Assembly: GCA_032718475.1 (NCBI GenBank)
Contig: JAUCBJ010004780.1
Location: forward strand, 13,177 to 77,176
DNA: 64,000 bases
From: Nemertoderma westbladi
Taxonomy: Eukaryota; Animalia; Xenacoelomorpha
Direction of reading: 5' to 3'
Shown: positions 1,218 to 55,207 of the stretch, piece by piece
Layout of the letters: every line of letters starts with the position of its first letter
How positions within the stretch are numbered: position 1 is the stretch's first letter
Notes under the pieces: generated by a model
What the model saw: the letters and a program-made list of their open reading frames with translations, nothing else
What the model was told of the DNA's origin: nothing
Database searches by the model: none
Made by a program: the position numbers and the translations under genes

Positions 1218-3722
1218 ATGGAAAGTCACGAAATTTTTAAACCTACTTATGGATGGCGAAAATTCCGACCGTCGTTCCTCCAAGCACTCAACTCAAATCG
1301 ATGTCTTTTGTTCTTCAGTATCATTGCTGGCGGGTTTCTCAAGACGTTTCAGTATGCCCTTACCTATGGGAACTTCTCAAACATAGAACGAAGGTTCGCT
1401 TTAACTGGCGTTCAAGTTGGAACATTGGCTGGAGTATACTATATTTCTGCGGCTTTAGTAACTGTACCATTAAATTATGTTACTCCATACCTAAACCGCC
1501 CTAAAGTTTCAGCTATTATAATTGCTATCAGTTCTTTTGGTTGTTTCATTTGTTACATTCCTAATTTCGCTTCATTATTGTATAGTAAGGTGTTTAACAA
1601 TAAACCCGAAATTCCAGCAACAACGACTCCAAAATACGTAGACTTGTCTCAAAATAATGATTACATCCCAACTTCTACACCGCATCCCGAAGTTGTTAGT
1701 AAATCCTACCATGTGGAATTCGGTTTTATGGTTTTCGGGCAAATGATTGTCAGTCTAGGAACAGCGATCGCCTACCCTCTGATCTACTCCTATCTACATG
1801 ATCGTGGTTCAGATAGATCGCTTTCCTTAAATAGGGGAGTTTTTATGGGAGGTAGTCATTTTGTTTTGGTATTTTTGTTTGTTATCGTGGCTGCGTTTCT
1901 CTCTGTTGATGGAGATTTGAATTCGACTGTGTCGGATCCCTTGGACCCCAGGTGGATCGGGGCCTGGTGGGGTAGCTACATACTGTTTAGTTTGTTAATC
2001 GTTCCGATTGCGTTTCTTATTTCGGGGTATCCAAAACAGGATCAACCAGCTGACCAACCATCAACACCTGCTGGCGGGACAAATTCTACTACAGAGGATG
2101 TTACACTCAATTTTTTAAAAGTTCTCAAAACTCCTGTTGGAGATAGGCCTACACCTGAAATCGCAAGAGAGGGTAAGCTATCAAATGGCGATAAATTTCA
2201 CATAACCGCAGACATGAGTAGGCCAACACCTTTTCATGTTATCCCTCCCGAATGCAATTCAAATGCTGGCGAACAGAATAAAAGACGACATTTTATCGTT
2301 CCACCCAATACCATTGACATGTCAGCTGTAGCAGATGGGTATATTGTACCTCAAATCTGGACAAATGTAACCCTCGAAAGGGAAAGTAGTATTATTGAAA
2401 GTGAATTTAGCAACGATTATATTGAAATGAAACCCATACAAATTGATGATGAGTATATGTTAATGACCAGTCCCGAACTTCCAGTTGAAATGTCTGATGA
2501 AAAGAAGTCTAGTTTCAAAACAATGATCAGGAAATCCCGACAATCAATTATTCAAAAACAGCGATCATTTAAACTTAAAACAATTCCCAAACAAAAACTT
2601 CGCTTGAAAAACATTGCTGTTGAAATCTCTCAGGACTTAAAAGTTTTGCTTAAATCAAATAAACGATTTTGGTTGTTAATTATCTGTCACACTGCCGAAT
2701 GTTGGATATTGTCGAGTATTTTCCCGTTTGCAGTGAAATATTACGAACAAATGTTCGGTGTGACAAGTACAAGTGGAGCACTAATACTGGGATTAATCGT
2801 TCTGCTATTCGGAAGTTTTGGAACGATTGGCAGCGGTTATTTTATCAAAAAACGGGAATTAGAAACAACCTTGGGTGTTTTGAAAGTTTTGGGTGTTGTG
2901 ATAGGCCTACAGATTCCTTTGGCCACAATGTTCCTTGTGTGGTGTCACGGAACACCTTACCCTGGAGTCAACACCCCCTACCCATTTGGGGATACCAACA
3001 ATGAATTAAATGTCAGCCTAAATGCATTCTGTAATTATGAATTAAATTGTGAAACCAAGTATTACTCTCCCATTTGCATAAAAGGCTATAATATATACTC
3101 ACAATGCTTCGCCGGGTGTAAAGCAGACGCCTTTCCATGTTTTTGTTTTACACGTCATGATGATATGAATGCGACAATGATTAGATCGGGGGTTTGTACA
3201 AAGCATTGTTATCTACTTGGCTTCCATTTGACTCTGCTGGCGGTATTTTCCTTTCTTTATCTGTCGGCTGAAGGTCTTACAATGGACTTATGTCACAAAT
3301 CACCAGTCCGATCTAATAAAGTGTTAGCCGGGTCTCTGTTGATGGCTGTGTCGTCGCTTTTCGCTCGCGTCCCTGCCCCTATCATAGCTGGAGCTGTTGT
3401 AGACTCACACTGTTTGTTGTGGTCGCCTTATGGCACCAACCAATCATCCAATTGTTTGGTGTATGATAATTGGGGGTTAGCTATGTCCCTATTTGGATTT
3501 GTTATCACCCCTGCGTGTGTGGCTACTTTCTGCGTCATCGCGTTATTCCTGATATTTAAGAAACTGGAGAACCATCCTTGGATCGACATTTCGCCGGAAA
3601 GAGCAAAGAAACTGCGACTTAAATTACATGTGGAGAGTAACTTAACTGAGACAGGAAGTGTTATATTATCAAAAAACACAATGAATTGCTCTCAACAATC
3701 GATAAACGAATATAGTGTCTAG
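1218..3722 (+). CDS. Organic anion transporting polypeptide (SLCO/OATP family), single coding exon, 834 aa
   Basis: SNIERRF near TM1, OATP signature DPRWIGAWW, Cys-rich Kazal-like loop (FCNYELNC...YSPIC...YSQCFAGC), PAPIIAGAVVDSHCLLW and C..YDN motifs, about 12 hydrophobic segments; AATAAA at about 3736. Confidence 0.93.
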   Translation: MESHEIFKPTYGWRKFRPSFLQALNSNRCLLFFSIIAGGFLKTFQYALTYGNFSNIERRFALTGVQVGTLAGVYYISAALVTVPLNYVTPYLNRPKVSAIIIAISSFGCFICYIPNFASLLYSKVFNNKPEIPATTTPKYVDLSQNNDYIPTSTPHPEVVSKSYHVEFGFMVFGQMIVSLGTAIAYPLIYSYLHDRGSDRSLSLNRGVFMGGSHFVLVFLFVIVAAFLSVDGDLNSTVSDPLDPRWIGAWWGSYILFSLLIVPIAFLISGYPKQDQPADQPSTPAGGTNSTTEDVTLNFLKVLKTPVGDRPTPEIAREGKLSNGDKFHITADMSRPTPFHVIPPECNSNAGEQNKRRHFIVPPNTIDMSAVADGYIVPQIWTNVTLERESSIIESEFSNDYIEMKPIQIDDEYMLMTSPELPVEMSDEKKSSFKTMIRKSRQSIIQKQRSFKLKTIPKQKLRLKNIAVEISQDLKVLLKSNKRFWLLIICHTAECWILSSIFPFAVKYYEQMFGVTSTSGALILGLIVLLFGSFGTIGSGYFIKKRELETTLGVLKVLGVVIGLQIPLATMFLVWCHGTPYPGVNTPYPFGDTNNELNVSLNAFCNYELNCETKYYSPICIKGYNIYSQCFAGCKADAFPCFCFTRHDDMNATMIRSGVCTKHCYLLGFHLTLLAVFSFLYLSAEGLTMDLCHKSPVRSNKVLAGSLLMAVSSLFARVPAPIIAGAVVDSHCLLWSPYGTNQSSNCLVYDNWGLAMSLFGFVITPACVATFCVIALFLIFKKLENHPWIDISPERAKKLRLKLHVESNLTETGSVILSKNTMNCSQQSINEYSV

Positions 3723-4474
3723 TAATTAGGTTATTAATAAATTAAATTTTGGTCTATTTTGTAAATAATGGTTTTCTAATGTAGTTGATACAGCTGTTAT
3801 ATAATTATTATAAAAATCACGTTGCCTAGCATTGACTTTCAATTTCAATAGTCGCTTTGTAAACTTCAGTCATTCAGTTTCAAACATTTTGATAGTTATT
3901 GAGATTTGAATGTGTAATATATATTTTTTTACTGGTCGAAGTTTCCATCTCCCTGATGTTCTATTTGCGGACCTACAGTAATGGGGGGCGACCAAGGTTT
4001 CTTCGGTTTTACACTGACGTATTATTTATTAATTAATAAGTAACTAGAACTGCTGACGTCACTGTAGTCCACATAACAGAAACATCAACAAAACATATTA
4101 CAACAATGTCCATGTTAACTTTTAGTTAGTTTATAAACAATACTATCTCTATAGGCTGCTTCAGGTGTACCAGTTTGGGTTTGAGGTTAATTTTGTTAGT
4201 GATAAAAAGCATTGGATATCCTTAACCATAAGTAATCCTGCCATGTAACCCTAATCCAGCGGAATTTCAGACATAATTGACATAGACACGAAAAAGGTCG
4301 TGAATAACCAACCTGCCAACTAACCCGAACCAAAATAAGAAACCAATTACCCAACTTACATGGCAACAGATATAACCAATAACGGTTATCCCACAAACAC
4401 TTACCACCAATTATAACAGGTACGCCCCAAACAGAAAAAGAGACACTTATATGCGAGTGGGTTATATAAAGTAT

Positions 4475-5128
4475 TTATAGCTTCATCAAACCCATCACCG
4501 ATTCAAAGGTTATCTTCTCTACGATGTTTTTTGTTTTTATACTGTCGTCATGGTTACAGACTAGCACGTGCCGGTCTGAGTCTGTCCAGCGGTACCGGTC
4601 TATCCAGTATCCCAGATTGGCGACCCCCTGGGCGGTGTCCACCGGTGTGTTTAGTAACTCACTGAGGGTCACCTTGTCTATGGTCTGGTAAGTTATACTG
4701 ATTACTCGACAAATAAACCGCCGTATAGAATCCTCGAACCCGACGATATCAGCAACTAACTCGGCGCAATCCCGGAGACTCAACCAGAAACCGATGAAGT
4801 TACAAGTCTCTAAATCGTCGTGGAGTTTAAGTATCCTAGCAACCACGGGGTGGTGCTGCGTAGCCTCGTCTATGAGACACTTACATAGCGTAAAGTCTGA
4901 CGCAGGGAGGGCGGTGAGCGCTTTCAGTAGTATCTTCCGTAGCGTATCGGGTTTACTTATTCCGTTGAACTGTAAGAGTTTGAGTAGCGCGAGGTTCGCT
5001 TCCACATCGTAGGCCGCCGGTTCCCGGGCCTGGAAGTCTACGTAGCTAACTAGCGGTTCGATGTTATCCGGGTTGTATCGTTCGATACCCACTAGCTGTT
5101 TCGCTATCTGTTTCTTTTTGGATTCCAT
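4475..5128 (-). CDS. EIF3K: Eukaryotic translation initiation factor 3 subunit K, single coding exon, 217 aa
   Basis: GIERYNP.N...L..YV..Q, YDVEANLALLKLLQFN, ILLKALTALPASDFTLCKCLI, GFEDSIRRFI and IKTKNIVEKITFESV match eIF3k motifs; full expected length. Confidence 0.96.
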   Translation of the reverse strand: MESKKKQIAKQLVGIERYNPDNIEPLVSYVDFQAREPAAYDVEANLALLKLLQFNGISKPDTLRKILLKALTALPASDFTLCKCLIDEATQHHPVVARILKLHDDLETCNFIGFWLSLRDCAELVADIVGFEDSIRRFICRVISITYQTIDKVTLSELLNTPVDTAQGVANLGYWIDRYRWTDSDRHVLVCNHDDSIKTKNIVEKITFESVMGLMKL

Positions 5129-8269: not shown

Positions 8270-8496
8270 GATCACACCATAAAAATAACGGACCATGGTT
8301 TCGAACCCCGAATAGTAACGGTGAGACAGGGAGACAACGTATACTGGCAATGGGAAACATCGAGTTTCCAATCGGTTCTGGAGGTGTCCCATCTAGCTAA
8401 ACCAGTGCACAACGGCTTCACCAGCGGTGCACCATTCCCTGGCCCAGCCGCTTACAAGTGGCAGTTTTCTAGAACAGGAGTGTTTTACTTCGTAAG
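8270..8496 (+). CDS. Host gene exon A (cupredoxin-like repeat); gene begins upstream of this exon
   Basis: tttacag| ... AG|gtaaat; translates DHTIKITDHGFEPRIVTVRQGDNVYWQW...GFTSG...YKWQFSRTGVFYFV, a plastocyanin-like pattern (F.P..VTV..GD.V.W; F...G.FYF); phase 0 to 2. Confidence 0.88.
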
Positions 8497-8879: not shown

Positions 8880-9045
8880 TTCTGGGTTGGCTAAGCAGTT
8901 TGGTGCGGTTGTTGTAGTGGCGACACCCAATGTCCACCAAGTTCACGCATCAAAAGACGCAGTAACTCCAGACCCTGTAACCATAGCTACCAACGACATA
9001 GTCTGCTGGATGTGGGAAGGATTGAAACACTTCGATGTAACTGAG
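8880..9045 (+). CDS. Host gene exon B (cupredoxin-like repeat), probable GC donor
   Basis: ctttcag| acceptor in phase with exon A; SSGLAKQFGAVVVVATPNVHQV...TPDPVTIATNDIVCWMWEG...FDVTE; donor GAG|gcaagt (alternative in-frame GAT|gtaact at 9036). Confidence 0.82.
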
Positions 9046-9060
9046 GCAAGTATCAAGTCA

Positions 9061-11340: not shown

Positions 11341-11436
11341 TAGGCTTGCCAAGTCAGTTTAATGCAAATGAGGTGAATCATTACTGATTTCTACAAAGGT
11401 CCATCAATATCTTATAATACAAGTCGTACGTTACAG

Positions 11437-11574
11437 GTAACCAAGGTCTATAATCTGCACAACCTGCACCAAGGGCGAACCGACAACCGACTAACTGGTC
11501 GTCGTTGCCTCGCCCGTCAATTTCCCGACAACGGAGTTCTCCACTACGCTTCCAGATCCTTCCTAACTGACGAG
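11437..11574 (+). CDS. Host gene exon C
   Basis: ttacag| ... GAG|gtacgt, 46 codons with no stop; VTKVYNLHNLH...RRCLARQFPDNGVLHYASRSF completes a cupredoxin-like repeat. Confidence 0.82.
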
Positions 11575-11976: not shown

Positions 11977-12180
11977 GAGTCGACGCGATCCCAACCGGTA
12001 CTGAGTACAGTAATTGTTGGAACGTCGAATGGTGCCGTCTGTGTGGAACTCAGTTCCGATGCGGGATTCCAACCCCACGTCGTCACTATGAACGTGGGAG
12101 GGAGCATCTTATGGAATTGGAAGTCGCGGGCGTCTTCGGAAGAACATAACGTCATCCGAGTTGACACACCCCAGCCAGAT
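11977..12180 (+). CDS. Host gene exon D (cupredoxin-like repeat)
   Basis: ttcattag| ... GAT|gttagt, 68 codons; VLSTVIVG...VELSSDAGFQPHVVTMNVGGSILWNW...EEHNVIRV. Confidence 0.86.
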
Positions 12181-15578: not shown

Positions 15579-15738
15579 ATGAAGGAGCTAAACATCACCC
15601 AGGGACCGGGAGCATTTAATTCTGGACCCCCAGTAGCCAATAACAGCTTTATGTACACGTTCGCCGAACAGGGCCAATACTATATCGCCTCGCAAGGGGC
15701 GCCTGGTTTCATGAGCGTCGTATACGTTATTGAAAGCG
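15579..15738 (+). CDS. Host gene exon E (end of cupredoxin-like repeats)
   Basis: ttccag| ... G|gtgagt; MKELNITQGPGAFNSGPP...FMYTFAEQGQYYIASQGAPGFMSVVYVIE; phase 0 to 1. Confidence 0.88.
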
Positions 15739-39119: not shown

Positions 39120-40018
39120 GTATCAGGAAAAGCATTATAAACAATAATACGAAAGGGCTGACGTTTTAATTTCACACATATCTAAAATGTTTAATTTCAG
39201 CCCACTAGCGGTAGACTGGAGAACTGCCGAGAGAATACCATCCCAACAAAGATGCTACCTATGTATGGTCTACGGTCTAGCATGTCTGCCAAGTATCAGC
39301 TTGAATGGATAAAATAGAACCAAATGAGAGAAAGTTTTTACTTTCAGACATTTCAACCTCTAGCGGCAAACTGGAGAACTGAGAACCGATCAAATTCTTC
39401 ACACAGACGAACCATGTGGTCTGGTACATATTTTAACGGTTAACTGGACGGTTAATACTTTCATACATTTCGCCCTCTAGCGACATACTGGAAAACTGCA
39501 GACTGACCGATTACAGAGACCACAAAGATACAGGATGTGTTCTAGCACATATGACAACTTTCAGCTTGTATGGATCATAAATAACGGAATGGGTCAATAA
39601 TTTCACTTTCAGGCATTTCGCTCTCTAGCGGAAGACAAGAGAACCATAGACTGGTTAGCCCCCTTTGAATGCCACAGCTAATGGTCTAGTACGTATCTGC
39701 CAAGTTTCAGCTTGTACGGATTAAAAGCAAAGAAATTGGAGGACATTTAATGTTTAGACATGTTGGAGACTGATGAACTGGGTTTCTTAAAGTTTTTAAA
39801 AAATCTCACCTTTTGGTCCTGTAATAATGCCAACAAATTTTCAACACGACACGGCTTTAAATCCGACAAAGTTATTAGCATGTCAAATCGTAACGAAAAC
39901 TACGTCGCGGAGTCAACAACTATTTGCCATTATTGTCCCACCCCTAACCCTAAAATTGTCAGTTCACTAAGGCTCCGGCAACGTCGTGGCTCACCCCACA
40001 AAGCGCGAGCTGTATAAT
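39120..40018 (+). mobile_element. Probable Helentron/HINE-like element with degenerate internal repeats
   Basis: Four recurrences of CTAGCG...ACTGGAGAAC-like blocks; 3' end ctaaggctc...cgtggctcacccca resembles 471-501. Confidence 0.35.
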
Positions 40019-40585
40019 CTTAGCACAGTACAGCCGGTTCACTGTATTATTTACCTGTACTGTACGTACAGGTCTATAAACATGGATAAATAGGCCAGGT
40101 ACAGTACCGTGAGATTTAGCCATAGTGCAGTAGTGCTGCAGTGCACTGACTACTGCTTCCTGAATACGGGCAAATACGTCCCACATACGGTAGCCTACGG
40201 TAGGCTACGGGAACTATTTCAAATACGTACACATACGGCAAAAAGACAGACCTACAGATAAAGCTGTAAAGAGCTGTACCGTACAAGAGCTGTATTTGCT
40301 GATTGATGGCCCAGTGCTGCAGTGCAGCAGTGTGCAGTGGGTTATAACCAGGACTGAACTGACCAGCGTCAGTAGGCCTAATCTAATACGTAGCAAGCAA
40401 CGTACAGACGTCAGACGTAGGCCAGTCTGCCAGTACTGCAGTATGCTATACCTGTAATACTGTTACTGTACCGTACCAGCCTGCCAGCGTACTATATCTG
40501 TATATCTGATATCCTGATATCAGAAGCGTTTGGCCTACCGGTACCGTTATAGGCTGATAGTGCTATATGTTCGATATTCTAAAAA

Positions 40586-40830
40586 ATGGCAACTTTATCA
40601 TCGAAGGAGCGAAATATGAGATATTTCGATAAGCTGAAAAGGGAGGGACGTATGGATGACTATCGTAGAAAATCTAACACTAATAAAAGGTTGCAGAGGA
40701 GCAGAAGAAAGGAGACAATGTCAGAAGCAGAGTTGAAAAGGGAAAGAGTTAATAATAGGTTGCGTCGACGTATGTACAGGGACCGAAAACGTGATAAAGA
40801 GATCCAACGGCCATCAGCGCAAAACGCCAG
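40586..40830 (+). CDS. C2H2 zinc-finger protein, exon 1 (basic, helical N-terminus)
   Basis: AAAAATGG start context; R/K-rich MATLSSKERNMRYFDKLKREG...RDRKRDKE; donor AG|gtgaga in phase 2 matches the acceptor at 42748. Confidence 0.75.
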
Positions 40831-42747
40831 GTGAGACATTAATATATATTATATTTTTAATCTGGAATGATATATCTGTATATGTTACGTTATATTTTTT
40901 AAACCAATGTATAACACAATCCTAGGTAATAACCGGACTGGGGGCCCTCCAGTCCAAAACAATAAACAGTCACTTTACAAAATGAAGGGAAGGAGCAGGT
41001 TACAGAGGCGGGCCTTTCTAACCAAAACAATAAACGGTCACTTTACCATATCAGGGAAAGGAGCAGGTTACAGAGGCGGGATTTCTAACCAAAACAGCCG
41101 GCATGACCGGTCAGTTAGGTCAGAGTAAACAACACACAGCACAGCAGAATAGGTGGAGGGCCCTGAATCCGGATTGTACCCAATCCTATATTGGGCCTAC
41201 AAAGATATCTCTCTACAGCTTTATAACTTTTACAGTTCTGCAGTTCATTTGCAAAACTTAATGCTACCAGTATATGCAATAATTATTTTAGCAAGAGCAT
41301 TACTTATTACTATCCTAATTGTTATATATAAACATCAGGCTTAGAGGTATGTATGATTCATGTAGGATGTGTATACATAAACATAACATTTATGTATTAC
41401 CGGTACGCAATACATCCATTACAATCTAACTTACTTATCCCAGATTAGTACAGCAAACAAATTAATAAACACACGGACTAAAAATATAAAAATACCTAAA
41501 ACAATAAACAAATATGGCCACAATTATTTTCTAATCTCAACAGCTAAACTGTGGAATAAACTACTGAACTACCGAGACAAATACGAGAAAATCTTTCAGA
41601 AAAAAAAATTTCTTTCTAAACTCAAAGAACATTACACCACTCAATTCGAAAGATCTGCAATAACATAAAAAAGGAAATAAATACAAGATTAAAAACAAAT
41701 GAGATTCCGTTTACAAAACCACACAACAAAATAAAGTATAATAGTAACAATAATGGAAATAATGGATGCTTTGTATTCAACATAAATATATGTGTGTTTG
41801 TATGTCCATGATTCTTCATATGGGTGTGTGTTCATTTTTTTGGAGGGGAGGGGGGGGGGGGGTATTTTTATTTTATTTTATTTTTTGCGTGGAGAATATC
41901 TATATCGATTGTGTGTCTAATCCTGGTCCCTGTGCAAATATATAAATTATAATTATTGATATATTTTAATATGTAGGCTAAGTTACATATAGTACAGGTA
42001 CCTGTACGTACAGTACATAGTGGTACACCTAGTGCACACGGGTACTGACTATTGGTTTTATTAATTATCAGTTGGTGCTACCGTAGCATTTTAACTGCCT
42101 TCAGCCAGTTCTCTGGCTGAAGTTCTAAACCAATTATACAAAAAAATGAAAAATGAATGAATGAAAACCTTGACTGCAATTGATTGTGTAGCTTTGGTGT
42201 CCATCTATTGTACTGGTACTGTTTCTACAGCTACTACAACTTCTACTCTACTGAACGCCGCCATTCAGGATCTGTAAACCGGGACAGTACAGCACATAAT
42301 GACATCAGCAGTGGCGGCTGGCGCCCTCAACCATATTTACACTAATGTAACCCTGGTGCCTGGTTGGCTAGCCTAAATCATAAATCTAATAAATTTAGCG
42401 GAAATCTTCACATTACCACAACGTACCTATCCGATATCCCGTGCAATGTCAATAACTAATTATTACGACAACCTGCTGACCTGTTTTTATTGTAACCGTA
42501 GAGCAGAGCCGACTTATAAAATTATAAATAAAACAACATGACGATACGATGATCGATGATTCTCAACAACTTCATAATTTCATTATTTTCCCGAAGCTAC
42601 AGTTCTCGCAATTGGTTCACCATCAAGCTTTTCATAATATAATAAGGTAATAATAATACCTTTGATTAACTTGAATGAGTCGGGAGTGCCCATAATAAAT
42701 TATAAATCATTATATACCGGTACATCTTTAATTTTGTTATTTTTCAG

Positions 42748-43432
42748 GTTCAATATTGAAAATTCCATTCCACTGGAATTTGATTCAACGCGGAGTGAAG
42801 AAGATGAAACAGTCTGTAATATTTGCAATAAATCATTTAAAAGCAGAATCACCGTAAAGATTCACAGGAGACTAGAACACGTGTATAAATGTGACAACTG
42901 TATCTTACGGTTTGTTACCCATTCCAGTTTCCAGAGACATAAATGCGATAATGCGAATTGTAACAAATCATCAGCAACTTCCTCCAAGAACCGACAACCA
43001 AATCCTAATCGATCCCCCCAAACCCCCGTGGAAAGAACTATACATGTAAATACCGGTAAAGTAAATCAAATAACTTCTCGGAAGTTAGTTACTGTTATGG
43101 TACATCTCAACCACAAATGCGATATGTGTTCTTCGACTTACAAATCGCCGGCTTTGCTCAAGGATCACATTGTATCTGTCCATGGTAACGACTCTAGCAA
43201 TGGTAATTATTCGCAATCACCCAAATGCGAACCTTCGTCTAAAAATAATTCTAATATTACCTGCAATACTTGCAATAAATCGTTTGCAGATCTGCTTGTC
43301 TTAGAACGACACATGATTGAACACGAGAGTTACCTGTGCAGTGAATGCGGTATGCTATTTGCTACTAAAGGCAGCCATTCTCGGCATTATCGTAAGTGTT
43401 GCCGTTTAGGGGAAAACGATACAACTCAGTAA
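42748..43432 (+). CDS. C2H2 zinc-finger protein, exon 2 (about 5 fingers); 309 aa spliced
   Basis: tttttcag| acceptor; CNICNKSF...HRRLEH, CDNC...H.C, CDMCSSTY...HIVSVH, CNTCNKSF...HMIEH, CSECGMLF...HYRKC. Confidence 0.85.
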
Positions 43433-43911
43433 GTTGGTAACATCGCAGTTCGATATCATCATTTTTCTGACAAAATAATAAACAATTTGCTATAGAGTAT
43501 GTCAACTCAATAGGATTATTATGACCATAGTTAGTAGGCCTATACGGTATAAACTATATAGGGAAGTTTTATTGCGATATTATTTTAGTTGTTTATGAAG
43601 CTTTTATTGAATTTATTGTATCACTACTTTAATTAATTAATTTGGAAAACAATTTATATTGATGTAATTATGTTTAAAACCAAAAATAGCGATTTGGAGC
43701 TGAATAAATAATAAATGTTGTGCAATCAAACTGGAATTTACCAGTTACCAAACATTCAATAGACTTTTACCTCGACGTCTGTAAACCCTTTTATTGAATC
43801 AATTTAATTAATGGTCTAAATGTATAGTAAATACTCGTTCTATAATTTACTTTCTTTTAATTTATTCAATTTTCGTGAAGATGGATAATAAATACAATTA
43901 ATTATTAAGAC

Positions 43912-44012
43912 GGGGTACCGGTATCTCAGTGGGTTGAGCGCCGGATCTGCAATCTATTGGTTGAAGGTTCGAGCCCCGCCACGGTCCACTCAGCCGTTCA
44001 TCACCTGGGCTT
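43912..44012 (+). mobile_element. tRNA-derived SINE fragment
   Basis: A-box-like GTATCTCAGTGG and B-box-like GGTTCGAGCCC, followed by a CCACTCAGCCGTTCATC body instead of a tRNA 3' end. Confidence 0.55.
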
Positions 44013-44573
44013 ACACACATAGCGATTATAATATCAATATGATATGGTTTTCAAATCGAATTCGGGATTATTTTCGTTAATAATTTTGATATTAATTTAA
44101 TATTATTTTATTACGCACAATCTGTTACCAACTAATTTTTTTTATTAAAGTTGGAATTCTCGATCCACTACATATTCGATTATGTAATTTTAACATATAT
44201 TTTTATTGAGTTTTTTCCGAAAGTCGAAAGGTTTTTTTCACTCCTATAAAGAGGAGGACAGAACTAATATATTTACTTTGACTCTTGATTGGTTAGCGAT
44301 GCCTTATGGCTGGCAGATAGGCGACTTTGGACGTAATAAAAATCCATCCCTCTCCAGAGGAAAATCGACAAGGATAACAGCTGATTTCTGCCAAAAATCA
44401 AGGTGTAACCTGTTCTATTAATTTTCTTTTAGTGTTTTGGTTAGAAGAACGTGCCACTGTAACCTGCTAATTTCCCCTAATTGATAATTAAACATTGAGG
44501 CGATATCGGTTTTGCGTCCACCACCCTCACTCTGTTCTCCCCAATACACCATAACAATGAAAAGTTTTAGAAA

Positions 44574-45182
44574 TTAGTTGTCTTTATGAATATCGTCTAA
44601 TGTTAAAGAGTCGAACTTCTTATAAAACTGAATGGCGTCTGTCAGTCCGAGTCCTTTTAAATCCCCGGCCTCGGGTATGCGACAAAGTTCAGTGAACCCG
44701 AACTTCCTCCACATGTGAATGGACGCCGAATTATTAACGAAAACGAGATTAAAGAACGCCGCTTGGTACCCCAAACCCGGGGCGATGCGTAGAAACTCCT
44801 TCCCCATGAACGAACCCAATCCTTCTCCTCTCGCCTCCTGTCCAACAACGAAACCCGCGTTACAAATGTGGGAACATCGACCTGGGAAGTTCGGTTTTAC
44901 GTAGAATGCGCCGACAATGGAACCATCCGTGGAATCCTTTAGAACAAAAACGTCGTGGGAAAGATAGTAGGCCTTAAAGTCATTAACGTCCGATAGATCG
45001 ATCTGTGGGTACGATGTACCTTCCTGGATCACGTTTGCTACTAAGATATGGAGTTGGTTCGTGTCAGTATCAGCTTCGTAGTGATCTAACGTTACTCTCC
45101 TGCCGGTCTTTGATACCCAACTAATTGGGAGGAATGATAATCGAGTTGTATTGCTGTTACGTGGTGGTATGTAGTACGCCAT
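44574..45182 (-). CDS. GNAT N-acetyltransferase, Mpr1/Spt10-like, single coding exon, about 202 aa
   Basis: EGTSYPQ, GAFYVKPNFPGRCSHICNAGFVV, acetyl-CoA motif RGEGLG, GYQAAFFNLVFVNN..SI..W.K.GF...IP.AG; ATG at 45182 in TAAAATG context. Confidence 0.9.
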   Translation of the reverse strand: MAYYIPPRNSNTTRLSFLPISWVSKTGRRVTLDHYEADTDTNQLHILVANVIQEGTSYPQIDLSDVNDFKAYYLSHDVFVLKDSTDGSIVGAFYVKPNFPGRCSHICNAGFVVGQEARGEGLGSFMGKEFLRIAPGLGYQAAFFNLVFVNNSASIHMWRKFGFTELCRIPEAGDLKGLGLTDAIQFYKKFDSLTLDDIHKDN

Positions 45183-45448
45183 TTTACTTAGAAGTATCAA
45201 ATAAAAATGTAAATTTATCTACTGTTATATTGAAACAATAATAATTATATTATAATCTAATGTTTTAATAAAATCAAACGAAAAATATATGAGCGAATTG
45301 TAAAATCTAATTGTTATTTTAATGTATTTACATTAATCCTCCGAACCGAACTATCAATCAGTGTTTTAATTTTTGCTTCAAACCTCAGATTAATCCAGTC
45401 CTGGGCCTACTGATCTGTAAAAAAAACTAAAATAACTCTACTCACGAC

Positions 45449-45705
45449 GGTTCGTTGGGTGAATTCTTAGCCCTCGAGTATTCATAGCCCGCGAGTATTC
45501 ATAGCCCTCGAGTATTCATAGCCCGCGGGTATACATAGCCCGCGAATATTACCGGTATTAGCCCGCGAGTTAGTAAAGGAGCAGGTTAGTAAAGGAGCAG
45601 GTTTCGGAGGCGTATCGGGGGAACCAAAACAATAAACGTTATTGTTTTGCGGGCTAAGAATACCCACGGGCTAAGAATACTCGCGGGCTAAGAATTCCTG
45701 AGACC
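45449..45705. mobile_element. Merlin-like MITE (257 bp)
   Basis: GG...CC termini, inverted 18-bp subterminal repeats (AGTATTCATAGCCCGCG / CGCGGGCTAAGAATAC), exact 8-bp TSD CTCACGAC (45441-45448 and 45706-45713). Confidence 0.78.
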
Positions 45706-46004
45706 CTCACGACCTTAGCTGGTATAAACCTACAAACGAAATCCTGATATCTATAAATGGATCACAAAACACTGAAGTACAACAGACGATGTTAATTTGA
45801 ATTTCCCTCCAATTTCACACCTTTAAGTTTTTTTTATAAGTTTACAAAGCAATTAACTCTGTAGCTACCTGGGCCGATTCATGGCAGCTTTCAATTACAA
45901 TGGAAAAAATGCGAAGTACTTCACATAGGAAATTGTAATAACAATACTGATTTTCCGATGCTTCAAAACGAAAACGCTGAGTGATTTATTTACAGCGTAT
46001 AAAT

Positions 46005-46103
46005 CATACTTGCAGCATATGGGAATCCTGAGGAAATTATTGCAGCTTTCAGATCATTGTACGATGGTTGCGGCACAATTGTGTCTAATGCTGATGGGGA
46101 CAC
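46005..46103 (+). mobile_element. Short RTE-type LINE RT fragment
   Basis: Translates ILAAYGNPEEIIAAFRSLYDG, matching the RT ORF at 48650-49024. Confidence 0.7.
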
Positions 46104-47040
46104 ATTGTTGCTGCAGGTATAAATCCTGCCTTTAAAATTACTTATTTTACCAATTTACCCAAAATACTGTATATTTAGTGATAAAGGACCAGTTACGGTA
46201 TCATATTGATTTGTTTCTTACAAATTATTCTTTAGTAAAGGTTCTTACGCCATCTAGTGCTATTACACCTATATTCGATCTAATTTCTACTGTAAAGGCC
46301 TACTAAACCTCAAATGGAATACGTGATGCTTATTATATCATATTATATATATATATATAATATATATTATATATATTATATTATAGCTATATATATTATA
46401 GCGTATTATATATACGTGATACGCTCGGGAAATAAAATAACTCGAGTATAGTGGAAAAGTTGTAACTTTTATTTTCCTAAGTACTAAATACTTAATTATA
46501 CTAATAAAATGTATTTAATGTGAACAATACCGTCTGTGGGTAATGGATACATGACTTGTCCACCAAAAATACTATTCAATTAATTCAGCCAATTTAGTTA
46601 TATATCCAATTTGAAGTTTATGCAATGTGTTACCCCTAGCGGCCAATATAGGAAAATATAGAAATTTTAGAAAGTAAACCATTTAAATAAGTTTGACATC
46701 AATTTTTACTAACAAATTCGGGTGATTTTTGATGATCGAATCTTACGGCGATTGGATGAATTAAGCCTAGAGCTATACAACACACATGACACAGTTAATG
46801 TTTTACCTTGGAGCTTGGGTGTTATTATTCCCTTGGGCAAAATAACACCTATGCAATTAATGAATTAAAGTGAAACACACCGAACATTTTCCAATTCCCT
46901 TGGGAAAAATAAATATAAACACCCCCAAAACTTTCCAAGCCCCATTTTGTAAACTCTTCCCCCAAACAATGCCCTTTTAGAATCTGTAAATAGTTGTTAA
47001 GGGACAAAAATAATCGAAATGCATACCATAATATGTGTAA

Positions 47041-47188
47041 CAACTTACTTATTCCCCAGAAGTTAGTTATTTTCCCAGTTATTTAACCCTTGGGCAGGAA
47101 CACCCCCGGGCTTCGCCCTCGGGTTGTTTCCTGCCCCCGGGTTAACTAACTGGGAAAATAACTAACTTCTGGGGAATAAGCATAGTTG
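47041..47188. mobile_element. Palindromic MITE-like hairpin (about 148 bp)
   Basis: CTTATTCCCCAGAAGTTAGTTATTTTCCCAGTTA pairs with TAACTGGGAAAATAACTAACTTCTGGGGAATAAG around a GGGCTTCGCCC apex. Confidence 0.8.
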
Positions 47189-47443
47189 TGCTATGATTGA
47201 TTTTACTCTCTTTTTGTTATTGTTTTACAGAAGAAGTCGCACTGCCCATGCAGAGGCTTTGGTCCCCGGTCAAGTTTAGTTGACTGGTGGTTATTACAGG
47301 CCTACGGTCTAAACTTAAGGAGTTAATAATTGAATTATAATATATTATTGTTGTTGCAATAAATGGTCGATACCAAAGGGAAGGCATAACAATCACAAAG
47401 AGGGTTAATAAAAATAAATTTTCGTTGAAATAATATTTAAAAA

Positions 47444-47809
47444 ATGTCTTATCGTTCGAGTGCCAACAGGAGCGCTTCTGACAGTGACCAAACCCCTAAT
47501 CTTGATGTGACTGCAATATCGATACATTCCGACCATCCGTCCATAATCAGTGTCTGTGACGTTGAAGGGTACAACCAAACTGAACCCGAAAATCAAACAG
47601 CACAAGAAGACGCTATTCGCCAACACTTGGGAGAATATATAAAAGCAGTGGGGGAACAAGAGTTGATAAGGAGATTACGTGGACATCGCCCAACTAGTCC
47701 CACCACCAAGAAAATCCTAAAAGATATCGGCCAAGACATGGATTTAGAAAGTACCCGGTCCCCGGACCCCAAGTACCTTACTGATCTAGACTTTGCTGAT
47801 GACTTATAA
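47444..47809 (+). pseudogene. Unknown ORF whose last 13 codons derive from a LINE RT
   Basis: AAAAATG start and about 108 aa of non-repetitive sequence, then PKYLTDLDFADDL, matching the RT motif in ORF 48650-49024. Confidence 0.45.
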
Positions 47810-47824
47810 GTACTCTCAGAATCA

Positions 47825-49315
47825 CTACTACTACGATCGGCATGCTGCATTGCAGCTGCATTATATATATATTTATATTACATATATGTATATAACTCAA
47901 GAAAGCCATGGGCTATCCACTATGCTTATTCACTCCATGAGGCCGCCAAAGCACAAGATTATGCACTGACTGGTCCTCATGGCGATAGCAATGTCCTGCA
48001 AAGCAGAGGGGGCTTTGTTCAAGTGTCAAGCTAGGGAAGAATGATGGAACACCTCCAATGGCAATGTTGTATAGAGTCTGATTGGAGATGTGTTCATTGT
48101 ACTTGACACAATGAACCCGGCGTAGCATTCTTGTGAAAGTGCCATTCAGAGATTTGGTATCCTCTGCAGTTAGAGACCAGCATGGATTCCCATATAAGAG
48201 TCTGGTACTACTACTGCCATAAATACTTGAACCTTAAGGTTCCTTTTTATTCTATGGGACTTCCAACGCTACCCATGCCTTCCCCTTACGTATCCGAGGT
48301 CGGACCTGACTTTCTGATCCTTGATCCCAAGTAGCAGAAGTCATCTACGTGCTCAAGCAAGCCGTTCTTAGAGCTTATGCCCGTACGATCAGACATTTCT
48401 TGAGGACTGTCTGTCTAGGTTAACTGTCATGATTGTGGTCTTTTTGGAATTTTCAAAAAGACCATCACTAGAAGCAATCTGGTCCAATGATCAGAGGAGC
48501 CGTTGGGCTCCCTCTAGTGATTCTGAGAGTACAGTACTCCTAAGTCATCAGCAAAGTCTAGATCAGTTAGGTACTTGGCAGGATTTCCTTGACTTCTGGA
48601 GCCAGTAGGGGGTGTTACCATCACCCCGGAATTTACAAAAAGACCATCACTAGAAGCAACCTGCTCCAATGATCAGAGGAGCCGTTGGGCTCCCTCTAGT
48701 GATTCTGAGTACTCCTAAGTCATCAGCAAAGTCTAGATCAGTTAGATACTTGGCAGGATTTCCTCGACTTCTGGAGCCAGTAGGGGGTGTTACCATCACC
48801 CCATCTTCATTAAGATGGTCTAAGGACATGCGTAGAACATAATCAACCACAATTACGAATAAGAATGGTGCAAGTATGTCACCCTGAAGGACTCCCCATA
48901 AGACTTCGAATGGATCTGTGTCACCATCAGCAGTAGCCACAAATGTGGTGGGACCATCGTACAGTGATCTGATAGCTGCAATAACTTCTTCAGGAATCCC
49001 ATATGCTGCCAGTATGCTGAACATACGTGGTCGGGAGACTGATTCGAAGGCTTTAAAGAAGTCAACAAAGATAATAGTATTGATAACTCTTATAATATTG
49101 ATAACTTTTCGATTATCCTTCCAAGTGCCAGAATAAGCTCCATGGTCCCACGACCTTTACGGAACCCATTTTGGTTCCCACGTAACAGTCTCTCAACAGG
49201 ATCCCTGATCCGATTTAATAGAATGTTGTATAGCTTTGCAGCAATCGCGATTAAAGAGATTCCACGAAAAGATCCGCCTTTTTTTAGGTTGCCCTTGTTT
49301 GGGGCTGGGACCAAC
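47825..49315 (-). mobile_element. Degenerate RTE-type LINE: RT domain and 3' end
   Basis: FRGISLIAIAAKLYN, NQNGFRKGRGT, FVDF.KAF.SV, GVLQGDILAPFLF, LDFADDL; frameshifted; internal duplication near 48455-48810; (TAG)n tail at about 47825. Confidence 0.9.
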
Positions 49316-49324
49316 GTATTTGTT

Positions 49325-50097
49325 TTCAGTTCTCAGTACTCTCAGAATCACTGGAGCCCTATGGCTCCTTTGCTCATTGGAGCAGCCTGCTTCTGGTGTA
49401 GGTCTTTTTATAAATTCCAATATGAAACTGTTGACAGTGAAACTTGATAGCACTCAAAGAGATGTCTGATCGTAAAGGCATAAGCTCCAGGGATGTCTTG
49501 CTTGTGTATGTGGATGACTTCTGCTACTTGGGATCATGGATCAGAATGTCAGATACGTAAGAACAGAATAGTCTGTCCAGGATTTGGAAGTCCCATAGAA
49601 TAAAACGGAACCTTAAGGTTCGATTATTTATGGCAGTAGTAGTACCAGTACTCTTATATGGGAGTCCATGCTGGGCTCTAACTGCAGAGGATGCACTTTC
49701 ACAAGAATGCTGCGCCGGGTTCATTGTATCAAGTACAATGAACAGATCTCCAATCAGACGCTATAAAACATTGGAGGTGTTCCATTAATCTCCCCTAGCT
49801 TGACACTTGAACGGAACCGGCTCTGCTTTGCAGCACATTGCTTTCGCCGCGAGGACCAGCCATTGCATAATCTTGTGGCCTCGTGTAGTGAATAAGCATG
49901 GTGGACAGCCCATGACTTTCTTGAGACTTAAAGGACACTGGACATGAATATGTGGATGATCTAGCAAATGTCATGGGTGATAGGGAGTTGTGGCGGCGAC
50001 ATTTTGTCGACAAACCGGCACAGCATTCTTAATATAATGTAATATACATAATGCAATGCAGCTGAAATGCAGCATGCCGATAGTAGTAGTAGTAGTA
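49325..50097 (+). mobile_element. Second RTE-type LINE 3' fragment, inverted relative to 47825-48650
   Basis: Reverse-complement similarity to 47825-48540 (e.g. cccctagcttgacacttgaac, gcagcatgccgat), ending in a (TAG)n tail. Confidence 0.8.
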
Positions 50098-50412
50098 CTA
50101 TAAAGCAGAGCGGAATATACCCGTTGTAGTTTTCGTTGGGCATTGCATGGAAAGTCGGCATTAACGTCCAATTGAAACAATTTGTTGAAAAAACCACACC
50201 TTCACCTATCATAATACCAATAATAATTAATTATTATATATATATTTATGCAAAACGACTGGCATGGAACTCTACTATTTGACTAAAGGTCAAGTCACAT
50301 ATCAGTTTGTATTAGTCCATTTCTACAGGACTGTGTAATTACTGTAATACATCTTATATTGATTAGATAAACCTAGCGATAGGGTGTTTATCTATTATTA
50401 ACTAATATTTAG

Positions 50413-53052
50413 GGTTATATTGAAAAATATCGAGACATGAAAAATATCGAGAGTAAAATAACGCGAGTAAAAACATCGAGTGTTGAAAAATAACGATAAT
50501 ATCGAGAGTTCAAAAAATATCGAGAGTAAAAATATCGAGGGTAAAAATATCGAGAGTAAAAATACCGAGTGTTGAAAAATATCGAGAGTAAAAATATCGA
50601 GAGTAAAAATATCGAGTGTAGAAAAATATCGTGAGTAAAAATATCGAGTGTTGAAAAATATCGAGAGTAAAAATATCGAGTGTTGAAAAATATCGAGTGT
50701 TGAAAAATATCGAGTGTTGAAAAATATCGAGTGTTGAAAAATATCGAGTGTTGAAAAATATCGAGTGTTGAAAAATATCGAGAGTAAAAATATCGAGTGT
50801 TGAAAAATATCGAGAGTAAAAATATCGAGTGTTGAAAAATATCGAGTGTTGAAAAATATCGAGAGTAAAAATATCGAGTGTTGAAAAATATCGAGTGTTG
50901 AAAAATATCGAGTGTTGAAAAATATCGAGAGTAAAAATATCGAGTGTTGAAAAATATCGAGTGTTGAAAAATATCGAGTGTTGAAAAATATCGAGAGTAA
51001 AAATATCGAGTGTTAAAAAATATCAGGTGTTGAAAAATATCGAGTGTTGAAAAATATCGAGAGTAAAAATATCGATAGTAACAATTTTTTTAAATAAGGG
51101 TTTTATGATAATTTTTTTTACTAAAAATGTTCTAGAACAACAATATTTATCAACATTTGGTAGCTTATACAGTACGTGTTCTAATATAATATTTAACAAT
51201 ATTTATAATATTTATCAAAATTTATAGCTAGCAGCCTAGCACGTCTTTTATAATATTTATTAAAAAAATAGCAAAAACTAGCTAGTATAATAAATCTGGT
51301 AAATGGGTACCCAAGGTGTATTACATAATGCCATTCACTTGCACTGTTGTAACCCATGCACTGCAATATTGTTCCATAATTCTAAATAAAATGCTCAAGC
51401 AAAATGCAATATTTTTACTCTGAATATTTTTCAACACTCGATATTTTTACTCTCGATATTTTTACTCTGGATATTTTTCAACACTGGATATTTTTACTCT
51501 CGATATTTTTCAACACTCAACTTTTCAACTTTCAAGTTACTCAAAACTCACCTCTATAATCGTGCATTCAACTAAAAACTGTTTTATTCGAACTCATTTA
51601 TCGTATAACATTATTTTATTTAATCATTTTACAGTACAGTACTCCTGGCCCAAAAATAACTACGGGTCTTTTAAACGACATGTATTTTACTTTTTACTTA
51701 AGGAGAGTGCTCAGCGCTTAGAATAATTACTTGTTTTTTAAATAAGCGCTTTATAAATATTGAATTATTATTATTATTATTATTAACACTCGATATTTTT
51801 CAACACTCGATATATTTACTCTCGATATTTTTACTCTCGATATTTTTCAACACTCGATATTTTTACTCTCGATATTTTTACTCTCGATATTTTTACTCTC
51901 GATATTTTTCAACACTCGATATTTTTCAACACTCGATATTTTTACTCTCGATATTTTTACTCTCGATATTTTTCAACACTCGATATTTTTACTCTCGATA
52001 TTTTTACTCTCGATATTTTTACTCTCGATATTTTTACTCTCGATATTTTTACTCTCGATATTTTTACTCTCGATATTTTTACTCTGAATATTTTTCAACA
52101 CTCGATATTTTTACTCTCGATATTTTTCTCTGGATATTTTTCAACACTGGATATTTTTACTCGCGATATTTTTCAACACTCAACTTTTCAACTTTCAAGT
52201 TACTCAAAACTCACCTCTATAATCGTGCATTCAACTAAAAACTGTTTTATTCGAACTCATGTATCGTATAACATTATTTTATTTAATCATTTTACAGTAC
52301 AGTACTCCTGGCCCAAAAATAACTACGGGTCTTTTAAACGACATGTATTTTACTTTTTACTTAAGGAGAGTGCTCAGCGCTTAGAATAATTACTTGTTTT
52401 TTAAATAAGCGCTTTATAAATATTGAATTATATTATTATTATTATTAACACTCAATATTTTTCAACACTCGATATTTTTACTCTCGATATTTTTACTCTC
52501 GATATTTTTCAACACTCGATATTTTTACTCTCGATATTTTTACTCTCGATATTTTTACTCTCGATATTTTTACTCTCGATATTTTTAATCTCGATATTTT
52601 TCAACACTCGATATTTTTACTCTCGATATTTTTACTCTCGATATTTTTCAACACTCGATATTTTTACTCTCGATATTTTTCAACACTCGAAATTTTTACT
52701 CTCGATATTTTTACTCTCGATATTTTTCAACACTCGATATTTTTCAACACTCGATATTTTTACTCTCGATATTTTTCAACACTCGATATTTTTACTCTCG
52801 ATATTTTTCAACACTCGATATTTTTACTCTCGATATTTTTCAACACTCGATATTTTTACTCTCGATATTTTTCAACACTCGATATTTTTCAACACTCGTT
52901 ATTTTCGATATTTTTCATCTCGCGTTATTTTTACTCTCGATATTTTTTAATCACGTTAATTTTCAACACTCGTTATTTTTACTCTCGATATTTTTACTCT
53001 CGTTATTTTTACTCTCGATATTTTTCAAGTCTCGATATTTTTCACCATTACC
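50413..53052. mobile_element. Merlin-like foldback element (2640 bp) with TIRs expanded by 15/17-bp repeats
   Basis: GGTTATATTGAAAAATATCGAGACATG vs reverse complement GGTAATGGTGAAAAATATCGAGACTTG; exact 8-bp TSD ATATTTAG; arrays of AAAAATATCGAGAGT and AAAAATATCGAGTGTTG on the left, inverted on the right; internal 671-bp offset duplication. Confidence 0.85.
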
Positions 53053-53857
53053 ATATTTAGATAACGAGGTTATTATTATATTTACACCAAATCGATTCGG
53101 TTGGTTAATTATTATTTACATTCCTCGTATGTATTTCTGTTTAAAAATTGCATTTTAATTGCAGCAATGATAAATTGTGTTCATTAGTCTTATCTATTTA
53201 ATTTCTAAGTGGTTGCTATATAAGGAACAATATAAGAAAGCTAAAGCTTTACATAAACCAATGAACATCATACTGCACTATTGGCAGAGGGTAGGGGGCC
53301 TACTCACTCACACAACACCTGTTACATTCCACTAGACTAATGAAGGTGCATAGCATAATCGTATACGGTTGCTATGCAACAAAGTAATCAACACGTAACG
53401 TTACGTAACATACACAGCTTTGCACTGTATGGCACGAGAGCCAAACACGCATTCCACACGTCCCGTATAATACATGACAAATAAACATATTTTATAATTA
53501 TGTATAGTGTTGCTGTACTTAGTACAATGATTTAGGTATAACACTATTTTTTAAATATAACAATATTTTGGCAAACCATCATAACAGATGAGTGGGGCCT
53601 ATAATGATTTGTTACTTGGTTAGCATGTAAATCACTAATAATTTGGTATAAAGCAATGTTAGTTACGCCTACAATTATTCCGACCCCGCCAAGTTTTGAA
53701 GGGTACCGCTAGTTATTTAATGATAGTTGCAAAGTGAAAGTAATTACTACAGTACAGTAATTGCGTCAAATATCGTTTTAACCGAGCCGTTGTTTGACAA
53801 TTTTATTATAATAGTTTATAATATATTATTTAAGATATTAAAATATATTATGCGACA

Positions 53858-55207
53858 ATGTCTCTACTACTGCATGTTGCTTATATTATTTTATTAACGT
53901 TGTCACTGTACCTGACGCCAATTCAGTGCAGGTTTGAAGGCTCTAACGATGGTGAACTCGTCATGGTGAACGTTGTGTTCAGACACGGAGACAGATCTCC
54001 AGTTAGCACCTTCCCTAACGACCCCTACTACACGTTTTGGCCTCAGGGTCTGGGACAGCTCACTCAACTCGGGATGCAGCAACAATACGATCTTGGGCAG
54101 TTCCTGCGAGAGCGATACAACGGGTTCCTTGAAGAGTCCTACTCGCGACACGATACTCGGGTTATCAGCACCGACGTCGATCGCACGAGAATGTCCGCAG
54201 AGGCCAACCTCGCCGGCTTGTACCGCCCGCGGGGCCACCAGGTGTGGAACCCATCCATACCATGGCAACCCATACCGGTACACAAAGCCCCCACACCTGA
54301 TTACATTCTAGAATCATACGAGATTTGCCCAAGAAGAATAACCTTAGAAGCAGAGTTTAGAGAAACGGATGAGTATGAAAGGCAATTTGAAGAGAATGTG
54401 GATGTCCTGGAGGTAATTCGCGATAACATAGGGGAGTTTAACTGCACCGATGAGGAGACTGGTAGACCACAGAGTATATTCGAGTGTTACTGGTTCATAG
54501 CGGATTGCGTGGTCTGCTGGAGGGCGCACAACCTAACTCTACCCGAGTGGCTGAGCCCAGAAGCTGCGTCGCGGATTGTCCGACTGTACGACTGGTTGTG
54601 GGCCGCCCAGTTGCACTCCGACCAGTCTCGCCGACTGCTAGGCGGTCCGCTACTCGGCCGGTTGGTCACCGACACACAGTCCCGAGTTCGCGAACCCACC
54701 TCCGGCCCCAAACTCCGTCTGTATTCGGGACACGACACCACCGTGTCGCCGTTGTTGGCGGCACTTCGGGTGTTCAACGATCTCCAACCTCCGTACGCAA
54801 CCGCCCTCATTATGGAGTTATGGCGGAGGAACGGAACTGCCATGAACAAAAACACCAACGACTACTCGATTAAGTTGTTCTTACGGAATGAGTCTTATTC
54901 CAACGAAGTTCACCCACTAACTGTCCTGGGTTGCTCAGCAACCTGCTCTCTCCCCCGTTTTATCAACTTAACGCGGCCTTATATTCCTACAGATATAGCG
55001 ACCGAATGCGCAATTCCGCCGCCAGGTGTTTCTTACGTCTTCTACTTACTATCCGTTGCCTTGGTGGCCTGTGTAGCTGTGGTTTTAGGCGCCCTAATTA
55101 TTTGGGTGTTTTTGAAGCCGCGTGTGAAGAATCGCAGAGAATACGAAAGATTACTCGGTGATACCCAGTCTAGTGGGGGGTCTGGAGACACTACTAAACT
55201 GGTGTGA
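53858..55207 (+). CDS. Lysosomal-type histidine acid phosphatase (ACP2-like), single coding exon, 449 aa
   Basis: Signal peptide, catalytic RHGDRSP, WPQGLGQLT..G..Q...LG.FLR.RY, STDVDRTRMSA, WQPIPVH, YSGHDTT, C-terminal TM helix and YERL (YxxPhi) tail. Confidence 0.94.
   Translation: MSLLLHVAYIILLTLSLYLTPIQCRFEGSNDGELVMVNVVFRHGDRSPVSTFPNDPYYTFWPQGLGQLTQLGMQQQYDLGQFLRERYNGFLEESYSRHDTRVISTDVDRTRMSAEANLAGLYRPRGHQVWNPSIPWQPIPVHKAPTPDYILESYEICPRRITLEAEFRETDEYERQFEENVDVLEVIRDNIGEFNCTDEETGRPQSIFECYWFIADCVVCWRAHNLTLPEWLSPEAASRIVRLYDWLWAAQLHSDQSRRLLGGPLLGRLVTDTQSRVREPTSGPKLRLYSGHDTTVSPLLAALRVFNDLQPPYATALIMELWRRNGTAMNKNTNDYSIKLFLRNESYSNEVHPLTVLGCSATCSLPRFINLTRPYIPTDIATECAIPPPGVSYVFYLLSVALVACVAVVLGALIIWVFLKPRVKNRREYERLLGDTQSSGGSGDTTKLV

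Follow-up and report, generated by a model that had tools for sequence, protein, structure and literature searches.

An intron-dense giant cupredoxin-repeat gene and its intron-poor neighbors, six of them in one predicted 39-kb intron, in Nemertoderma westbladi

A 64,000-nt stretch of the Nemertoderma westbladi genome (contig JAUCBJ010004780.1, positions 13,177 to 77,176 of the forward strand; here called the window) contains two classes of protein-coding genes that differ strongly in intron density. A giant gene with cupredoxin repeats and fibronectin type III (Fn3) domains, hereafter the host, is interrupted by 12 introns over 2753 coding nt (4.4 per kb), compared with 2 over the 8807 coding nt of eight other genes (0.23 per kb), six of which lie in a single predicted intron of the host. 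The binomial probability of finding at least 12 of the 14 introns in the host is 1.8e-6, and the approximately 20-fold, two-class contrast is confirmed as real and statistically solid within the window. This eukaryotic, satellite-rich sequence of ~38% G+C is the sample for all gene structure counts reported here and contains no clearly un-nested gene. We lean toward reading the contrast as the outcome of lineage-wide, 3'-biased intron loss by recombination with complementary DNAs (cDNAs) of spliced mRNAs, with nesting being incidental.

Protein-coding genes were called from a Pfam scan and a listing of open reading frames (ORFs). In agreement with the original prediction, made from the sequence alone, the genes for an OATP/SLCO transporter, eIF3K, Nop16, a syntaxin, a GNAT acetyltransferase, and a histidine acid phosphatase each have one coding exon, recognizable as a single long ORF belonging to the corresponding Pfam family (Table 1). 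Six of the eight genes are hence without a coding intron, introns in untranslated regions (UTRs) having been checked for V-ATPase B only. The ORFs were also correctly described as intact. The eIF3K protein covers 99% of orthologues of 216 to 220 amino acids (aa) at ~50% identity, and the joined V-ATPase B protein aligns end to end with six homologues, with exon 2 (325 codons) ungapped outside one variable loop. OATP residues 12-273 and 414-751 align with a 730-aa starfish OATP (P0001), with one inserted loop in between, and acid phosphatase residues 33-385 align with whole prostatic acid phosphatase chains (PDB, E 5e-76). The last 16 codons and the stop codon of the acid phosphatase gene (55160-55207) are encoded by the first unit of a satellite array, and satellite sequence thus seems to have replaced or lengthened the C-terminal tail of the protein.

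The eight genes differ widely in divergence and base composition. The best identity of OATP to any protein found was 27%, and V-ATPase B is 85 to 87% identical to its counterparts in many phyla. In the eIF3K tree, the window branch (1.79, compared to a median of 0.21) falls outside the protostome group (support, 84), and in the V-ATPase B tree the window sequence clusters weakly (85) with other long-branch taxa. The G+C content at third codon positions (GC3) is 0.37 in OATP, 0.39 in the zinc-finger gene, and 0.74 in V-ATPase B, and all eight genes have 0 or 1 introns. The idea that intron loss was linked to broad expression was not supported, as OATP and the zinc-finger gene, which have low GC3 and are presumably not broadly expressed, are equally intron poor. 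Intron poverty in the window is thus independent of codon bias and function, which suggests that it is shared by the ordinary genes of this lineage in general.

The V-ATPase B and C2H2 zinc-finger genes had been predicted to contain one intron each. For V-ATPase B, this was seen directly in contigs from run X4. Among the runs listed for 20500-24000, none is labelled RNA. Contigs from runs X1 to X3 are DNA-like, and X4, labelled "DNA?", was taken as RNA-like, as within 20500-24000 it covers only the V-ATPase B transcript and bears a spliced joint. The X4 contigs span 20243-21469, 21501-22026, and 22062-22149, the last joined to 22653-23200. The 503 nt skipped by this joint (22150-22652) end in GT..AG on the minus strand (CT..AC on the plus strand), and the X1-X3 DNA contigs run through them. 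The V-ATPase B gene is therefore transcribed at this locus, and its single intron is spliced, being exactly one in the covered transcript. This intron is of phase 2 and falls between the peptides SAIDTMN and SIARGQK. The coding sequence (23170-22653 joined to 22149-21174, within the minus-strand ORFs 22649-23170 and 21174-22265) encodes 497 aa, and the 3' UTR of 931 nt carries an AATAAA at 20273-20268 on the minus strand. Contigs from X1, X2, and X3 extend unbroken and at uniform depth over 17384-23466, which is a single genomic locus, and DNA depth across V-ATPase B is at the level of unique sequence.

The zinc-finger intron (42647-42747, GT-AG) is a predicted one. In the long zinc-finger ORF (42662-43432), the first in-frame ATG is codon 145, behind the first finger, and an upstream start exon is therefore needed. 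Both retained introns are 5' proximal, the spliced one after 518 of 1494 coding nt (35%) and the predicted one after 98 of 783 (12.5%).

A codon-usage score together with a self-comparison of the window led to the host by picking out plus-strand ORFs that share a cupredoxin-like motif. The exons at 8270 and 11977 (host exons 1 and 4) are paralogous (phmmer, E 8e-5). Searched exhaustively and without a profile, host exon 1 matched 78 library proteins at E<=1e-3, and the best matches were proteins of 3000 to 4000 aa with 6 to 7 copies of the cupredoxin-like domain. In Pfam scans, the cupredoxin repeats of these homologues are N-terminal and are accompanied by a CHB_HEX_C_1/Fn3_assoc domain and numerous Fn3 domains. 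They originate from Ptychodera, Anneissia, Diadema, Patella, Elysia, Bulinus, Argonauta, Macrostomum, and Intoshia and are all named uncharacterized proteins. Judged by these alignments, the host is a member of a conserved, unnamed protein family (including P0136, P0139, P0140, P0219, and P0344) that is spread over hemichordates, echinoderms, molluscs, a flatworm, and an orthonectid.

The host had been predicted to have 13 short exons, and this structure was recovered. The plus-strand exons, of 107 to 454 nt, lie between 8270 and 62005 and have 13 AG acceptors, 12 GT donors, and 1 GC donor. When joined, they form a 2753-nt chain with an open frame of 917 codons and no stop. The tblastn matches of the homologues follow a colinear series, with residues 458-848 of P0136 on 8264-18241, residues 905-950 of P0139 on 20074-20208, and residues 963-1069 of P0136 on 59586-59894. 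X4 contigs cover none of the host exons in 16873-20240 and give thin cover near 11400-11820 and 15610-16030. The exons correspond approximately to homologue residues 458-1500 of 3000-3700, and the host gene continues past the right side of the window after exon 13. By comparison with these homologues, the host stretch in the window would lie several kilobases from the 3' end of the mRNA.

Host introns measure 370 to 3398 nt, with the exception of one of 39,395 nt (20230-59624). Nearly consecutive homologue residues flank this large intron (950 and then 968 of P0139; 848 and then 963 of P0136, with exons 8 and 9 between), and a phase 0/0 junction across it preserves the host frame. We infer from this that the host is spliced across 20229/59625. 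The genes for V-ATPase B, Nop16, syntaxin, the zinc-finger protein, GNAT, and acid phosphatase lie whole between the consecutive exons 9 and 10, and guest and host exons do not overlap. On the strand opposite to the host are four of these six genes, three without an intron and one with one. Packing can be very tight, as the V-ATPase B transcript contig ends at 20243, only 14 nt from the donor of host exon 9 (20229), on the other strand. The sharing of one intron by all six genes is not significant (~0.12, a rough by-hand estimate assuming insertion proportional to intron length). The claim that the intron-poor genes are nested in the host thus stands for these six genes and is only a possibility for OATP and eIF3K, both of which precede the first host exon present here (8270). 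With tblastn, no match to the first ~457 homologue residues was detected in window positions 1-8263. For OATP and eIF3K to be nested, the 5' exons of the host would have to lie past the left edge.

Two origins had been proposed for the intron-poor genes, replacement by retrocopies or cDNA-mediated conversion in place. An A-run of at least 8 directly 3' of the gene was found in none of the eight genes, the sole A8 being 430 nt past the GNAT stop codon. Likewise, none of the eight is flanked by direct repeats of at least 11 nt, comparing the 800 nt to the left with the 1200 nt to the right; any ancient duplications might have decayed. The removal of introns appears to have been precise, the V-ATPase B and eIF3K alignments showing no indels at presumed former intron sites. 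The absence of poly(A) tracts and flanking repeats, the 5'-proximal retained introns, and the absence of indels are as the cDNA recombination model predicts. Of the two origins, in-place cDNA-mediated loss is likely the better fit, and replacement by retrocopies is less likely. The reverse transcriptase (RT) remnant reported nearby was also recovered, as a frameshifted copy of the long interspersed nuclear element (LINE) type whose PDB matches are the R2 and LINE-1 ORF2p RTs (E 3e-10 to 2e-7). However, it shows only that LINE-type elements once existed here. A metagenome scan for V-ATPase B intron positions retained 80 loci, of which 75 were unsplit (mostly transcript-like) and 5 were split. 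None of the 80 was split near the site of the V-ATPase B intron in the window, and the scan was uninformative.

Under the cDNA recombination model, cDNAs of spliced mRNAs would recombine with their genes and erase introns in place. PMC3488318 presents this model together with its 3' bias and names retention of 5' introns as its signature. As cDNAs primed at the 3' end would seldom reach several kilobases into the mRNA, genes of ordinary length would be cleared, whereas the 5' third of the host gene, with its mRNA of ~10 kb, would be spared. The host stretch in the window, several kilobases from the 3' end, would thus keep an ordinary animal intron density. Intron poverty would then be genome wide rather than specific to nested genes, and nesting would have arisen secondarily, from host introns that are long and full of repeats or from a block rearrangement.

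Alternatively, the eight genes could be orphan retrogenes, that is, old retrocopies that landed in host introns, took over the function, and outlived their intron-bearing parents, with their marks since decayed and the V-ATPase B and zinc-finger introns gained later. Introns of long genes often serve as landing places, and a LINE-type RT remnant is present inside the same 39-kb intron; six of the eight genes are free of coding introns, and their coding sequences are complete and precisely preserved. However, neither poly(A) tracts nor flanking repeats accompany any of the eight, the V-ATPase B intron is canonical and spliced, the long 3' UTR of this gene bears its own AATAAA, and its DNA depth is that of unique sequence. 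Furthermore, eight independent replacements of single-copy, mostly essential genes in 55 kb would amount to a genome-wide process that is less plausible than in-place loss. We therefore regard an orphan retrogene origin as unlikely.

Another explanation reverses the direction of change, in that an intron-poor state would be the baseline and the host introns would have been gained later (for example, through transposon-like introners or domain-exon duplication) or kept by selection for alternative splicing. The host exon lengths and density of 4.4 introns per kb correspond to ordinary ancestral animal values, as also stated in the abstract of PMC3174169, and its splice sites are canonical. A repeated intron-end sequence was not noticed, no formal search having been made. 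Intron gain would accord with satellites and high-copy repeats filling the host introns and with the different intron places in the paralogous cupredoxin domains (a complete core lies within exon 1, whereas the other is divided between exons 4 and 5), but on balance we consider it quite improbable. Finally, selection against mis-splicing with the host may have purged introns from nested genes, the explanation put forward for same-strand nested genes of Drosophila. In Drosophila melanogaster, the share of single-exon genes is given as 72.5% for same-strand and 37.4% for opposite-strand nested genes in Lee and Chang 2013 (PMC3814207). Here, the four opposite-strand genes are just as intron poor, one of the two retained introns is in a same-strand gene (zinc-finger, predicted), and the guests are ancient housekeeping genes, unlike the young, narrowly expressed genes that are typical of Drosophila nests. 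Selection of this kind is very unlikely to have produced the pattern.

Several points also weigh against the preferred scenario of cDNA-mediated loss. Its genome-wide scope is extrapolated from one window, and both loss in the lineage and an ancestral origin of the two retained introns are presumed from the gene structures of this sequence. The OATP coding sequence of 2.5 kb is free of introns, although it roughly equals in length the coding stretch over which the host retains 12 of them, so that an effect of distance from the 3' end alone must extend over at least 2.5 kb. The 5' bias is based on two introns, one of them predicted, and the RT remnant is broken. The introns of the two paralogous cupredoxin domains occupy non-matching places, which leaves room for intron gain in the host. 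Furthermore, the host junction 20229/59625 is predicted from homology and reading frame, not from RNA.

As a more far-reaching and only tentative proposal, which we hold to be rather doubtful, the genome might have a two-mode intron architecture without compaction. Whether housekeeping or tissue specific, almost all ordinary-length genes would have lost their introns to cDNA recombination. The ancestral density would persist only where 3'-primed cDNAs do not extend, namely toward the 5' end of giant genes. In that case, the genome could serve as a natural ruler of how far RT-mediated intron loss extends and would provide evidence that intron loss is driven by mutation, not by selection for small genomes. 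Massive intron loss in animals has mostly been described together with genome shrinkage, whereas here ancient housekeeping genes free of introns are surrounded by satellites, transposon debris, and a 39-kb intron. Should this be true of the whole genome, intron loss would be separated from compaction, and the 3'-biased cDNA model could be tested directly through its prediction that introns become denser the farther they lie from the 3' end of the mRNA. In annotation, the exons of this host could easily be overlooked or fused to the nested genes.

Table 1. Genes, predicted host exons, and other features in the window (P numbers denote library proteins; X4, RNA-like run)
Feature	Coordinates	Strand	Description
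OATP/SLCO transporter	1218..3722	+	One coding exon, 834 aa; PF03137 E 2.7e-68; AATAAA 13 nt past stop
eIF3K	4475..5128	-	One coding exon, 217 aa; PF10075
Host exon 1	8270..8496	+	Cupredoxin-like domain; P0136 aa 458-535, 49% identity, E 7e-19
Host exon 2	8880..9045	+	GC donor; P0136 aa 535-591, E 7e-10
Host exon 3	11437..11574	+	P0136 aa 591-632; open chain
Host exon 4	11977..12180	+	Second cupredoxin-like domain, paralogous to exon 1; P0136 aa 645-709
Host exon 5	15579..15738	+	P0136 aa 717-760, 59% identity, E 5e-12
Host exon 6	16770..16921	+	CHB_HEX_C_1/Fn3_assoc-like; PF13290 E 2e-5 on ORF 16691-16975; P0136 aa 767-813
Host exon 7	18134..18240	+	P0136 aa 813-848
Host exon 8	19092..19446	+	Acidic, poorly conserved; coding score, splice sites, open chain; weak tblastn matches to P0139 and P0138
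Host exon 9	20077..20229	+	Fn3-like; final exon before large intron; P0139 aa 905-950, E 2e-5; donor AATGTG/gtaagt
Large host intron (predicted)	20230..59624	+	39,395 nt; six protein genes, RT remnant, several satellite arrays
V-ATPase B transcription unit	20243..23200	-	Exon 1 23200-22653, intron 22652-22150, exon 2 22149-20243; Pfam, X4 contigs
Nop16	32610..33185	-	One coding exon; PF09420 E 1.9e-22; ORF to 33206, ATG 33185, begins MGKPKKRK
Syntaxin	34514..35332	-	One coding exon; Pfam Syntaxin_2 and SNARE
C2H2 zinc-finger	42549..43432	+	Two predicted exons, 42549-42646 and 42748-43432; Pfam zf-C2H2; open, 260 aa
GNAT acetyltransferase	44574..45182	-	One coding exon; PF00583 E 3.1e-9; ORF to 45200
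LINE-type RT remnant	48653..49332	-	Degenerate, frameshifted, two frames; RVT_1 E 8.4e-9 and 1.2e-4 in two ORFs
Histidine acid phosphatase	53858..55207	+	One coding exon, 449 aa; PF00328 E 5.5e-37
Host exon 10	59625..59883	+	P0136 aa 963-1069, E 9e-14
Host exon 11	60254..60458	+	Weak match to P0140 aa 963-1004; splice sites and frame
Host exon 12	61004..61457	+	Ser/Pro-rich linker; coding score 35.8, frame, splice sites; no homology match
Host exon 13	61833..62005	+	Fn3-like; weak matches to P0139 aa 1490-1524 and to P0219; chain

The host introns also harbor abundant repeats. High-copy dispersed repeats occur at 12242-13925, 14768-15609, and 23188-24000, with a word depth in X1-X3 of 50 to 1000 times that of the unique flanks. 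The five large tandem arrays, all within host introns, are located at 9073-11343 (22 bp x 103), 29935-30713 (63 bp x 12), 50420-53042 (15-17/32 bp x 40-80), 55160-57312 (53 bp x 41, the array that overlaps the end of the acid phosphatase gene), and 62056-64000 (36 bp x 54), and they yield long spurious ORFs in several frames. Host intron 6 contains a nuclear RNase P RNA gene on the opposite strand (17116-17407, minus; Rfam RF00009, 138.4 bits, E 8.7e-40, full model).

The palindromic 8-mer TAGGCCTA is present at 26 sites in the window (1.15 expected), a number reached in 0 of 100 shuffles. Its sites (e.g., 2144, 2902, 17658, 17675, 22401, 23337, 26808-28033, 34446, and 43535) fall within the OATP coding sequence, introns, and 3' flanks and close to the 5' end of V-ATPase B. 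Eleven are clustered in 26.8-28.0 kb, and two copies are 250 to 275 nt upstream of the RNase P RNA gene. A tRNA-like stretch with box A/B-like motifs at ~43940-44030 (plus strand), between the zinc-finger and GNAT genes, was not called a tRNA by ARAGORN and is possibly a tRNA-derived short interspersed nuclear element. A Pfam scan of all 393 remaining stop-to-stop ORFs of at least 45 aa outside known genes detected only the RT remnant and a weak CHB_HEX_C_1 match. The ORFs at 47461-47772 (plus) and 7448-7945 (minus) have a coding-like codon score and no Pfam match and may be unknown genes or transposon relics.

Each element of this arrangement has counterparts in known systems. In mammals, there are orphan retrogenes in which an intron-free copy is the only functional gene, often within an intron of another gene. 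These are isolated cases with a traceable retrocopy history, whereas here eight neighboring genes are concerned, two of them with introns and none with retrocopy marks. Under the cDNA recombination model, short genes are expected to lack introns, retained introns to be 5' ones, and long mRNAs to keep introns in the parts distant from their 3' end, all of which resembles the window. It is, however, a model rather than a family, and its steps here (cDNA, recombination, germline expression) would be deductions from gene structure.

The closest likeness in outcome is to the mite Aculops lycopersici, in which 83.7% of genes are intronless and the massive loss has been ascribed to RT-mediated intron loss (Greenhalgh et al. 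2020, PMC7738191). As in the window, conserved genes there became intronless by precise loss, the remaining introns are 5' biased, and some genes keep conserved introns whereas all are gone from others. However, the mite genome is streamlined (32.5 Mb), whereas this window is rich in repeats and satellites and has long introns and spacers, so that, as far as one window can tell, loss is uncoupled from compaction. The nested genes of D. melanogaster, according to PMC3814207, are likewise whole genes within the introns of a longer gene, often single exon and mostly on the opposite strand. In contrast to those nests, the guests here are ancient and conserved (V-ATPase B, Nop16, syntaxin), six share one intron, opposite-strand guests are as intron poor as same-strand guests, and splicing of the host was deduced. 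Nested genes and RT-type intron loss are both known already; what is less usual is that housekeeping genes free of introns lie next to a giant gene dense in introns, in sequence that is rich in repeats and not compacted.

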